IMG/VR virus record: IMGVR_UViG_2609459846_000013
Source of the DNA: a virus
Taxonomy: Duplodnaviria > Heunggongvirae > Uroviricota > Caudoviricetes
Length of the DNA: 5,496 nt
Direction: 5' to 3' (one strand)
Shown here: positions 1 to 4,725 of the stretch, piece by piece
Numbering within the stretch: the first letter of the stretch is position 1
Layout of the letters: each line of letters starts with the position of its first letter
Notes under the pieces: model-generated
What the model was told of the DNA's origin: nothing
Database searches by the model: none
Seen by the model: only the letters and a program-made list of their open reading frames with translations
Made by a program: the position numbers and the translations under genes

Positions 1-99
1 AAAAACGGTTGAGGCGCTGATGTGTAACGTCAGTCCGATACAACGGTTAGTCAGCTTCTTGTCGAACTTGAGCTGAAGGATCTTAAAACAGGTTTCCAT
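1..99 (-). CDS. Partial ORF (first 33 codons only; body lies beyond window start) with helix-turn-helix-like N-terminus; candidate transposase (IS21 IstA / Mu-like) or small-terminase/regulator
   Basis: Reverse complement of 1-99 reads ATG (99-97) then METCFKILQLKFDKKLTNRCIGLTLHISASTVF with no stop to the window edge. AGGAG lies 4 nt upstream of the ATG (rc of 101-109). The ...R.IG.TL.IS.STV pattern resembles N-terminal HTH motifs. Too short for the supplied ORF track. Identity is a guess. Confidence 0.3.
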   Translation of the reverse strand, partial: METCFKILQLKFDKKLTNRCIGLTLHISASTVF

Positions 100-203
100 A
101 GTGCTCCTGGATTTTCTCTTTCTGGACATTGACGTCTCCACTGGTTTAAACACGGCAATGGAGACTGTGGTGAAAAGAGTTAATTCCCGGAGTGACTGGC
201 AGG

Positions 204-350
204 ATGCCAATCAATGATCGGAAGCATGCCAAATCGTGATCGATTGTGATGCCAAACTGTGATCGGAGATGAATGCCAAATCATGATCGATTCGAATGCC
301 AAACTGCGATCGATTCAGATGCCATTTTGCAGGGTAAGCGTAGATCGGAT
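204..350. repeat. Tandem array of ~23-bp direct repeats, each containing a GATC (Dam) site; 5 well-conserved units at 204-325 plus degenerate units to ~350
   Basis: Units start at 204, 226, 249, 273, 296 and 319 (partial), all beginning ATGCCAA(A) and containing (T)GATCG; approximate consensus ATGCCAAAYNRTGATCGRNNNNN. A seventh GATCGG lies at 343-348 and CGGATAC occurs twice (346-352, 356-362). Six GATC sites in about 140 bp. Confidence 0.85.
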
Positions 351-867
351 ACAGGCGGATACTGACTTCATTCAGTTTTGGGGTTGCCGTCTGGTTACGT
401 GCCGCACCTTCTTCGCCGTGTCCCACGACCGCACCCCCGGCAGAAACCAGTTGCTTAAATTCATTACTGTGAATGGTTTTAACAGTACAGATTTTACGCA
501 TCACCGACTCATCAGAAAGCTGACGCATAATTTCTCTGTTCAGTTCCGGGATAACCGTATAACCACCATCAGCCGGAACACTGCCGGACAGGTTGCGGGT
601 TTCCCCGGTCAGAATGTAAGAGCGTAGCTCATTTTTGGTGATTTTATCTTCGACGGGAACACCAGGCTGGTTACGTTCTTCATCAGCCACAGACTCGAGG
701 CGGGAAATTTCTGTGTCGAGGGAATCGGCTTTTGCACGCAGTTCATCAAACTGTTTGCCTTCGTCATCGGTTAGACTGCGGTTTTCACTGTCGGCTTTTT
801 CCAGCAGGGATCGCATCTGGTTTTTCAGGGCGGTTTTTTGCTGGCGGAGTTCGATTAATTTCTTCAT
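211..867 (-). CDS. HK97-fold phage major capsid protein, N-terminal portion only (delta-domain coiled coil plus start of capsid core); probably truncated or interrupted
   Basis: ORF-track protein of 218 aa. The N-terminal ~65 aa are coiled-coil-like (MKKLIELRQQKTALKNQMRSLLEKADSENRSLTDDEGKQFDELRAKADSLDTEISRLE), followed by SGSVPADGGYTVIPELNREIMRQLSDESVMRKICTVKTI...AGGAVVGHGEEGAA, which matches the conserved G-G-Y-x-V-P-E...R-x-hydrophobic...V-G-E-G-A-A block of HK97-family capsids as I recall it. Full-length capsids are usually over 300 aa; here recognisable similarity stops by roughly nt 322-376 and the last ~36 codons are translated from the tandem repeats. Start ATG at 867-865 with only a weak RBS. 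Confidence 0.55.
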   Translation of the reverse strand: MKKLIELRQQKTALKNQMRSLLEKADSENRSLTDDEGKQFDELRAKADSLDTEISRLESVADEERNQPGVPVEDKITKNELRSYILTGETRNLSGSVPADGGYTVIPELNREIMRQLSDESVMRKICTVKTIHSNEFKQLVSAGGAVVGHGEEGAARNQTATPKLNEVSIRLYPIYAYPAKWHLNRSQFGIRIDHDLAFISDHSLASQSITIWHASDH

Positions 868-1100
868 GAAGGTTTTCTCGCATTGGTTAAGATTCAGGAC
901 GTGAAACCAACACGGGGGGAGCGCCGCCCGACACTCTCGGCATCTCGCAGATCAACCCGGCATCGCGCAGGGGGTCAGGCGGCATTGTGGCGGCTCACGT
1001 CTGAGTGCCACACGCCAACATATACATAAAAATCAGTATGTAAACATCAGCCAGAATCACCGAACAACCTGGAACAACCACGAACAAATAATTTACAAAA
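868..1100 (-). promoter_or_regulatory. Intergenic control region upstream of the capsid-like gene; contains paired direct repeats that could be operator/activator sites
   Basis: 233-bp non-coding gap between the terminator and the capsid-like start. Direct repeats CGGCATC(T/G)CGCAG at 938-950 and 958-970 (20 bp apart, two helical turns); CGAACAA at 1061-1067 and 1081-1087 with GAACAACC at 1062-1069 and 1072-1079. No convincing sigma70 -35/-10 pair found by eye on the minus strand, so an activator-dependent promoter is possible. Confidence 0.3.
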
Positions 1101-1104
1101 CCTG

Positions 1105-1136
1105 AAAAAAGGCCCGGAAAAAATCCGGGCCTTTAT
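1105..1136 (-). terminator. Rho-independent terminator (bidirectional hairpin) ending the minus-strand operon
   Basis: Perfect 8-bp stem GGCCCGGA (1111-1118) / TCCGGGCC (1124-1131) with a 5-nt loop. On the minus strand the hairpin is followed by TTTTTT (rc of 1105-1110); on the plus strand by TTTAT. Sits 5-10 nt downstream of the stop of the 1141-1389 ORF. Confidence 0.7.
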
Positions 1137-1140
1137 CGCT

Positions 1141-2910: not shown

Positions 2911-4725
2911 TTAATTTTTGCTGTCGTCATTTGTGACCGATGCACATGATGGCATCCAGTCTTCTGAATCCTCTGTCAGTGTCACATTTGAACGCAAACC
3001 GTGCTTCGTTTTCCGTTTTATATACTCCCTGCCATATTCCGCCATTGCCCCCGGCATATCTTTACCGAAGCGCGTCAGTGTTACAGGTTTACCGAATCCG
3101 TGTGCCCTCATATATGCCAGATAGGCGTGATAAAGATACCTGCGCGGACTGAACGGAATAATTTCGGCATTACCCACTAACAGACCATCACACATTACCG
3201 ACGACATGAGATAGCCACAGAAGTCCACCAGCGAATCGCCCTCGCGTTTTATCACCAGAGCTTCTTCTGATTTCTGCTGCTCATACAGCAGGCGTTTAGC
3301 TTCGTCCTGGTCAGAAAAACGAGTAAGCAGATGGCGAATCACAACCGCCAGCTCTCCTTCTATTTTTTCTGCCAGCATGGGGTCGCGCTCGTTCTCCGGT
3401 ACAACCTCCGAAAAATTGAATATCACCCGACGACGTGAGATCCCCCCGCTGCGGTCACTGAATGACATGGCGTTATTGTTCACCGCCAGCACGACCGCCT
3501 GAATGCGTGTTGAGTAGGGGGCTTTATGCTTCGGGTCGATTGCCACCTTGTCACCGCCTGTAATAGCCTTAATTCCTGCGCCATCACCAGCGTAGCGGGT
3601 CATATCCGGCATGATAATCAGCGAAAAGCCAACCACTAACGCGCGTTCCCTTGCATCTTCCAGCGCCTTCATGCTTGCCGATACTGTGTTGGCCTTACCC
3701 GCCAGCATGGTGCAAATCTCCGCCATCACGCTTTTACCACTTCCCCCTGGACCTGTTACCTCAATGAATAACTGCCAGTCGTACCGGTTCGCCAGCACCA
3801 TGAATAATGCAGCCAGCACGCGATCCGTCTTGCGGTCATTCTCTGCCACCGAGCAGCGTAACCACTTCCAGAAATTCGGCGCATGTGTTGCCAGCGTTTC
3901 CCCCTCTGCTGGTGGGCTGAAAGGTAATTCACTGGCAATTAACAACCAGTCGTTTTTGTTATGCTCCCGAAAATTACCTGTTCTGGTATCAAATACCCCG
4001 TTACTGAATCCAATCAGGTTACGGGCTGTATTCCCCATTACAGGCAAACTTAACTTCATGGTATCGACCGCCGATTTAATGGCGTTCTGCGAATAGCTGA
4101 TCTCCGCATCAATGAAAATCTGCGCCATAGCACGCTGTAACTCTTTATCCTGAATCGGCTCCCATACAACGCCGTTGTAATGGTGAACAGTGTCAGAGTC
4201 GGCATGAATCGCCAGTTCACCGCCATAATGTGCCAGGAGAACTTCGCCGCGCTGGCTTGCTCCCATCTGGTTAAGCGCCAGTGGTGCGGCGCTGTCTTCT
4301 GTTTTTTTCTTAACAGGAAGCTGAATCACCAGACCATCAGAAAGATTCTGGCGCTCACGGGCCAGATATTCGCGCCAGTTCTGCACCTCCTGGCCGTGCA
4401 TACCCTCAGGATAAAAATTTGCATCCTGTACGCCTGCCGCCGCCAGCTTCTGACCAATCGCCTTTATCATTACTGGCGCAAGATATCCGGCCCTGAATAT
4501 GCGCACGGATTTTCTGCCTTCCGGCACAATTTGCAGCTTATCCAGTTCGGATAACTGCTGCTCCCCAAGCCACACAGGAGGCTCATTATCTCCGGCCATA
4601 CGCGCGTCATGTTCCTGCCATTGTTTTGCGTGTGACCAGGCATCACTACCCGCAAAAATAATGACTTCTGTTTCTTTGTGTTTTATGCCGCGTGACTGCT
4701 GTTTTACGTTCGGTGCCAGTTTCAT
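2911..4725 (-). CDS. Replication initiator primase-helicase, P4-alpha / D5 family (phage- or plasmid-associated primase C-terminal helicase domain), 604 aa
   Basis: Longest ORF in the window. Walker A GPGGSGKS at residues 325-332, followed by a hydrophobic stretch with an acidic residue (LVVGFSLIIMPDM) and an Asn-rich motif (AVNNN) typical of SF3/D5-type helicases. A D5_N-like region lies upstream (HYGGELAIHADSDTVHHYNGVVWEP). The C-terminal ~120 aa are basic and aromatic-rich and may bind the origin. ATG at 4725-4723 with GGGG RBS; ATGA overlap with the upstream ORF. Primase catalytic motifs were not identified by eye. Confidence 0.9.
   Translation of the reverse strand: MKLAPNVKQQSRGIKHKETEVIIFAGSDAWSHAKQWQEHDARMAGDNEPPVWLGEQQLSELDKLQIVPEGRKSVRIFRAGYLAPVMIKAIGQKLAAAGVQDANFYPEGMHGQEVQNWREYLARERQNLSDGLVIQLPVKKKTEDSAAPLALNQMGASQRGEVLLAHYGGELAIHADSDTVHHYNGVVWEPIQDKELQRAMAQIFIDAEISYSQNAIKSAVDTMKLSLPVMGNTARNLIGFSNGVFDTRTGNFREHNKNDWLLIASELPFSPPAEGETLATHAPNFWKWLRCSVAENDRKTDRVLAALFMVLANRYDWQLFIEVTGPGGSGKSVMAEICTMLAGKANTVSASMKALEDARERALVVGFSLIIMPDMTRYAGDGAGIKAITGGDKVAIDPKHKAPYSTRIQAVVLAVNNNAMSFSDRSGGISRRRVIFNFSEVVPENERDPMLAEKIEGELAVVIRHLLTRFSDQDEAKRLLYEQQKSEEALVIKREGDSLVDFCGYLMSSVMCDGLLVGNAEIIPFSPRRYLYHAYLAYMRAHGFGKPVTLTRFGKDMPGAMAEYGREYIKRKTKHGLRSNVTLTEDSEDWMPSCASVTNDDSKN

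Follow-up and report, generated by a model that had tools for sequence, protein, structure and literature searches.

A 218-codon open reading frame (ORF) with capsid motifs, located near one end of a draft contig, is almost certainly the 5′ stump of a normal 381-codon major capsid gene that was split by the insertion of an IS21-family element. The split is documented by the inserted element and its ends, by the duplicated target site, by the exact restoration of the gene upon in silico excision, and by the rarity of the junction among sequenced genomes. The window, meaning the whole stretch of DNA analyzed here (5496 bp), is the entire draft contig JNQF01000088.1 (GCA_000704005.1) in reversed orientation.

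The chimeric reading frame and the split capsid gene

In the list of ORFs of the window, the minus-strand ORF at 211..867 encodes a product of 218 aa. The first-pass annotation had regarded this product as the N-terminal part of a major capsid protein, and that identity was borne out by several results. Both capsid motifs on which it relied were located (GGYTVIP, residues 101-107, and VGHGEEGAA, residues 148-156), and the Pfam Phage_capsid profile (PF05065) matched residues 101-180 only, corresponding to profile positions 1-81 of 280 (E = 2.7e-12). Because the match is restricted to these positions, the 218-aa ORF is an N-terminal capsid fragment. It does not cover the profile at full length (N-arm, E-loop, P domain and A domain), and hence represents a fragment of a member of the HK97 gp5-type family rather than a complete member. 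The annotation had named membership in a short non-capsid family, or a lack of any capsid similarity, as grounds for withdrawing its reading; the profile search returned a Phage_capsid fragment instead.

Residues 1-179 of the ORF are identical to the intact 381-aa capsid protein of the strain FDAARGOS_1249 (locus L002), and the two sequences diverge totally after this point. Residues 180-218 are read from the tandem repeats at the end of an insertion sequence (IS). The annotation was correct in deriving the tail of the protein from tandem repeats, whereas its length is 39 codons and not about 36, and the identity of the repeats as IS terminal repeats was missed. Since these 39 codons come from IS terminal repeats, the tail has no meaning at the protein level. 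The capsid portion absent from the ORF amounts to 202 residues, in line with the annotation's expectation that a further 200 or so would be needed. The features of the region are listed below in window coordinates, except where L001, the corresponding island of E. coli E203449, is named.

1..331, minus strand: istA-proximal end of the IS, with the terminus ...TTTTGCA finishing at base 331; the window stops within the IS
1..99, minus strand: first 33 codons of istA, with the ATG at 97-99; the gene leaves the contig
204..331: multiple terminal repeats of the IS, five 17-nt copies and a terminal partial copy at a spacing of about 23 bp
204-220, 226-242, 249-265, 273-289 and 296-312: the full 17-nt repeat copies
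319-331: terminal partial repeat carrying the reactive CA end, sequence TGCAAAATGGCAT
211..867, minus strand: chimeric 218-aa ORF, comprising capsid codons 1-178, junction codon 179 and 39 IS-end codons
211-213, minus strand: stop of the chimeric ORF
Junction codon 179 of the 218-aa ORF: CC/T across the junction, with proline retained
332..338: copy of GGGTAAG adjoining the istA-proximal IS end
332..867, minus strand: 5′ fragment (536 nt) of an HK97-type major capsid gene (PF05065), DNA-identical to L002
About 568-588, minus strand: predicted maturation site SGSVPAD, residues 94-100
868..1140, minus strand: non-coding region upstream of the capsid gene, 273 nt, with no long ORF on the strand of the gene
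L001 6686-6692: second copy of GGGTAAG
L001, next to 6076-6692: IS end sequence TGCGTATTCC, abutting the capsid 3′ half that occupies these coordinates

When bases 1-1200 of the window were compared with 5426 complete E. coli genomes by megablast, the sole full-length match was to E. coli E203449 (99.9%); many other genomes matched from base 325 or 332 onward only, inside an uninterrupted gene for a "phage major capsid protein". All 5496 bases of the window align with E203449 at 99.76% identity, with 4 mismatches and one 9-bp indel. The gene order in E203449, read in the direction of the genes, is a capsid pseudogene missing its C-terminus, istA, istB, and a capsid pseudogene missing its N-terminus. 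Both capsid halves are therefore already flagged as pseudogenes in RefSeq, in which the equivalent of 332..867 is labeled "phage major capsid protein, incomplete, missing C-terminus". The annotation had proposed a search for the missing C-terminal half elsewhere in the genome, and this half, 202 codons in length, was found directly across the IS in E203449. The far fragment covers positions 77-279 of the 280-position Phage_capsid profile, and the intact 381-aa allele (FDAARGOS_1249, L002) covers positions 1-279.

The IS is flanked on both sides by a 7-bp target-site duplication, GGGTAAG. Removal in silico of the IS together with one copy of GGGTAAG from the E203449 sequence yielded a 1146-nt ORF with 0 nucleotide differences from the intact gene of FDAARGOS_1249 and 4 differences from the second copy of the gene in E203449. 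No sequence was lost at the junction.

Short-read assemblies usually break inside multi-copy IS elements. E203449 harbors two near-identical islands and approximately 10 copies of the IS end, which was located at 11 places in the record. Because the contig breaks inside this multi-copy IS, the C-terminal half of the capsid gene is absent from the window; in the window's own strain, it would be expected to lie across the IS, judging from the E203449 junction. The annotation, which described the gene as truncated, overlooked that the window ends inside istA and that the "missing" half is off the contig.

A 200-nt probe centered on the junction was covered in full in one of the 5426 complete E. 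coli genomes. In addition, the junction is present in two draft contigs, JNQF01000088.1 itself and JOSO01000136.1 (GCA_000713745.1, 1807 bp), the latter carrying the same chimeric ORF and being 100% identical to the window over 1713 bp. The short form is thus not common to homologous elements, a point that the annotation had suggested checking. Matches covering 80% or more of the intact capsid gene were obtained in 47 genomes, of which 46 lack the insertion and 29 reach an identity of at least 99%; more divergent matches were found in about 100 more. The second island of E203449, located between allC and allE (L005), contains an intact capsid gene and a different integrase. Given the junction in a single complete genome and the intact sister island, the insertion occurred recently, is confined to one lineage and affects one of the two sister islands, and a conserved short form is excluded.

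The intact capsid protein was aligned with PDB entry 9GYI (E = 3.8e-184, 74% identity over the alignment), which is the capsid of the capsid-forming phage-inducible chromosomal island (cf-PICI) EcCIEDL933, a protein of the HK97 fold that assembles into a T=4 shell (depositors' preprint). The EcCIEDL933 capsid protein matures via N-terminal cleavage at residue 93, and its maturation motif, SxGxxAD, is common to EcCIEDL933 and HK97 (depositors' preprint). Residues 1-93 of the protein described here align with the pro-region of 9GYI, and SGSVPAD (94-100) is aligned with S93, at which the mature EcCIEDL933 protein begins, although the glycine of SGSVPAD is one position off compared to SxGxxAD. The likeness to the HK97 gp5-type family (PF05065) is apparent from the intact allele: the profile is matched over its whole length, the protein begins with a delta domain followed by the predicted maturation site, and a prohead protease gene is adjacent (L001, L002). 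In the alignment, residue 178 of 9GYI is the counterpart of the last capsid residue before the break (179), a position that we take, from textbook HK97 domain boundaries, to be approximately the end of the E-loop. Thus delimited, the fragment at 332..867 would cover the delta domain, which is scaffold-like, and, beyond the predicted maturation site, the N-arm and the greater part of the E-loop region. The stump would keep the delta domain, the N-arm and approximately the E-loop; absent from it would be the whole A domain, the spine helix and most of the P domain. In EcCIEDL933, single substitutions in the capsid part that is missing here, as well as a deletion of residues 232-247 within that part, reduce or abolish transfer (depositors' preprint). 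We infer that a stump lacking the whole A domain and the rest of the P domain would be unable to build a capsid shell.

The IS21-family element and its terminal repeats

The insertion is a 2639-bp element of the IS21 family, located at L001 6693-9331 in E. coli E203449 and encoding istA and istB. Both genes expected for the family are present, istA for a DDE/rve transposase and istB for an AAA+ helper ATPase: Pfam domains rve and Mu-transpos_C_2 were found on IstA and IstB_IS21 on IstB (E = 1e-60), and the RefSeq annotation agrees. RefSeq labels istB as "IS21-like element ISSso4 family helper ATPase", and the family name used here is RefSeq's label. The istA gene is annotated at L001 7564-9099, with window base 99 corresponding to L001 9099. 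The ends of the element are 5′-TG...CA-3′, as is typical of the IS21 family.

Three further copies of the 2639-bp IS (two on plasmids and one chromosomal) have identical ends and length, and interrupt or adjoin unrelated genes. Since these copies share both ends and length, the boundary of the IS is fixed at base 331. A mis-assigned IS end or target duplication was considered when other copies gave BLAST matches extending 6-11 nt past base 331, and was rejected; the duplications of the other copies resemble GGTAA(G/C), which accounts for the extra matching bases.

The three other copies are flanked by the duplications GGGTAAC, GGTAAGC and TGGTC (5-7 bp), and thus a short direct target duplication, characteristic of the IS21 family, accompanies this copy and all three others. 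Among the four insertions inspected, the duplications are 7 bp long and GGTAA(G/C)-like, with the 5-bp TGGTC as the one exception, and this resemblance hints at a target preference of the IS. Target duplications in the IS21 family are 4-8 bp long. With its istA-istB layout, TG...CA ends, length of 2.6 kb, short target duplications and multiple copies on chromosome and plasmids, the element resembles other members of the family. Its 7-bp duplications (5 bp in one copy) differ from those of the family member IS5376, for which the target duplication is 5 bp (PMC10122671).

The tandem repeats at the junction were detected by TRF across 202-324 with periods of 23 (4.3 copies) and 47 (2.4 copies), and the motif ATGCCAAWNNNTGATCG occurs five times compared to 0.10 expected by chance. 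The repeat consensus is CGATCAnnnWTTGGCAT, and, when the IS is read in the istA-to-istB direction, the copies start at positions 20, 43, 67, 90 and 112 within the first 128 nt. The opposite, istB-distal end carries two inverted copies of the repeat within L001 6693-6760. Terminal inverted repeats of IS21 are made of multiple direct repeats with a 23-bp spacing, integration by IstA in vitro requires two complete repeats, and the reactive 3′ end is a CA (PMC10122671). The spacing observed here is 23-24 bp, in agreement with multiple direct repeats of the IS21 family, and the tandem repeats are IS terminal repeats of the kind that IstA recognizes in elements of this family. Prototypical IS21 has two repeats per end (PMC10122671), whereas this element has five and a partial copy on the istA side and two on the istB side. 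The differences in repeat number and duplication length belong to this individual IS and do not affect the conclusion on the capsid gene. A search of the whole window against Rfam gave no family at the gathering score; the repeats are thus not a known RNA, and the same applies to the region upstream of the capsid gene.

The host satellite island and its other regions

In E203449, the island carrying the interrupted gene (L001) sits between two halves of yifB and is approximately 17.6 kb long with the IS and 15.0 kb without it. The early genes of the island encode a tyrosine integrase, an HTH regulator, an Icd-like protein, a DUF4222 protein, a D5-type primase, SSB and a ProQ/FinO protein. After the ProQ/FinO gene come the genes for head and packaging, beginning with capsid and continuing, downstream of the far capsid fragment in L001, with an HK97-family prohead protease, portal, head-tail connector, HNH, TerS and TerL. 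The protein accessions of the protease, portal, connector and HNH are the same in the split L001 and in the intact islands. No tail or holin/lysis genes are annotated between the yifB halves (L001), between phoQ and roxA (L002), or between allC and allE (L005).

The annotated gene lists of these three islands were compared with the published definition used by SatelliteFinder, which gives the defining gene set of cf-PICIs (PMC10085698). The core gene set of a cf-PICI is present, its capsid component being split in the window's copy, and the components "forbidden" in a cf-PICI (tail and holin/lysis) are absent according to the annotation. On these gene lists, the host element is classed as a satellite whose genes are those of a capsid-forming PICI. 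It resembles the prototype EcCIEDL933 in gene order, in a length of about 15 kb without the IS, and in its lack of tail and lysis genes, and differs from it in that the capsid gene of the window's copy is interrupted; for this reason, the window's copy presumably makes no capsids of its own. By analogy with the experimentally characterized EcCIEDL933, with which the capsid protein shares 74% identity, the intact islands may undergo induction by a helper phage and package their DNA into small capsids of their own that are fitted with helper tails.

The islands L001 and L005 of E203449 and L002 of FDAARGOS_1249 are near-identical, and occupy three chromosomal sites with three different integrases (WP_028120185.1, WP_032255557.1 and WP_000085267.1), the replication and packaging proteins being common to the islands. 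This suggests that integrase modules have been swapped among otherwise identical satellites.

The region upstream of the capsid gene (868-1140) is 99-100% conserved in the intact islands and is left untouched by the insertion. It presumably holds the promoter or regulatory region of the capsid gene, and may be a control region of the late operon of the satellite. A promoter and terminator scan of bases 1-1400 detected one weak sigma-70-like site (1044-1017, minus strand), no more than was obtained with shuffled sequences. The same region contains 2.7 copies of a CGAACAACCA repeat at 1061-1087, and a GC-rich hairpin at about 1108-1135, located just after an 82-aa ORF.

The ProQ/FinO-family gene (1380-1919) encodes a protein of 179 aa in the window compared to 176 aa in L001, L002 and L005. 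The three additional residues are due to the single 9-bp difference from L001, which maps near 1769-1800, where TRF also reports an imperfect 12-nt tandem repeat (1767-1799). The presence of a gene for a ProQ/FinO RNA chaperone within a phage satellite is worth attention by itself. An AT-rich non-coding stretch (2675-2897) lies between an 81-aa ORF (2378-2623) and the D5-type primase gene (2911-4725). It contains nine copies of GTGAACAG in both orientations, with 0.17 expected by chance, and looks like a candidate iteron-type replication origin of the island.

Competing explanations and consequences

The first-pass annotation had offered two interpretations, a gene disrupted in a satellite-type element and a purposely short capsid-derived protein. 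The first holds in the form of an insertion, given the IS21-family element, the 7-bp duplication and the cf-PICI gene set, and the second had to be abandoned. That the ORF encodes a scaffold, a decoy, or a size-redirection protein like Cpm or Sid of other satellites appears next to impossible to us, even though the stump has a complete delta domain, which is scaffolding-like, together with the first part of the HK97 fold, resides in a satellite, and is present as the same chimeric ORF in three assemblies. The final 39 residues of such a protein would be encoded by the terminal repeats of an IS, the missing half of the gene is intact at a distance of 2.6 kb, and its reunion with the stump on excision leaves 0 differences from the intact allele. 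Both halves are pseudogenes in RefSeq, and the junction occurs in one of 5426 complete genomes, whereas 46 others match at least 80% of the gene without it. Moreover, a full-length capsid protein is what cf-PICIs use to build small capsids of their own, and a need for a redirection factor has not been described for them.

An assembly artefact, in which the draft contig falsely joins an IS end to the capsid gene, would have to be reconciled with the occurrence of the same junction in two draft assemblies and one chromosome-level assembly, the last of which contains both junctions with a perfect 7-bp duplication, the signature of real transposition. A 5496-bp draft contig that ends in a multi-copy IS does invite this explanation, and E203449, with its two near-identical islands and numerous IS-end copies, is prone to mis-joins; we nevertheless assign it a negligible probability. 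Equally negligible is the probability of a decaying remnant from which the capsid 3′ half, and perhaps downstream genes, have been deleted. The window taken by itself would fit such decay, as it shows nothing downstream of codon 179, but E203449 retains the capsid 3′ half and the entire series of genes from protease to TerL, and the junction is free of any loss of sequence.

Under the preferred explanation, namely an IS21-family insertion into an otherwise normal capsid gene, the 2639-bp element transposed into capsid codon 179, and the 7-bp target GGGTAAG was duplicated in the process; no observation speaks against this model. Translation that begins at the intact start codon of the capsid gene would run into the IS terminal repeats for 39 codons and reach a stop. 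The C-terminal 202 codons are intact beyond the IS. As the upstream region at 868-1140 is untouched, the stump may still be translated, and its domain content argues that the product would be non-functional. The istA and istB genes are transcribed in the direction of the capsid operon, and the IS is probably polar on the downstream protease, portal and terminase genes. With its capsid gene split and its downstream genes subject to polarity, this copy of the island would be unable to package itself without help, and could spread only if capsid and packaging proteins were supplied in trans, for example by the sister island.

A further effect of the stump is conceivable and, in our view, very improbable. 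Expressed with its 39-aa IS tail from the intact capsid promoter on helper induction, it could co-assemble in the procapsids of the near-identical intact sister island of E203449 at the all locus, and poison or alter their assembly. If this were true, the stump would act as an accidental dominant-negative regulator of satellite spread.

All of the components described here belong to known families, i.e., IS21 elements, cf-PICI satellites and HK97-type capsids. The biological weight of the finding is very small, as pseudogenes made by IS elements are commonplace in mobile elements. The case does carry a caution for the annotation of draft genomes, in that an IS junction should be looked for before a short capsid-like ORF at a contig end, with a tail encoded by repeats, is taken for a new capsid-derived factor. 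Furthermore, the occurrence of an immobilized cf-PICI-type copy beside its intact twin in one genome offers a possible natural control for transfer experiments.
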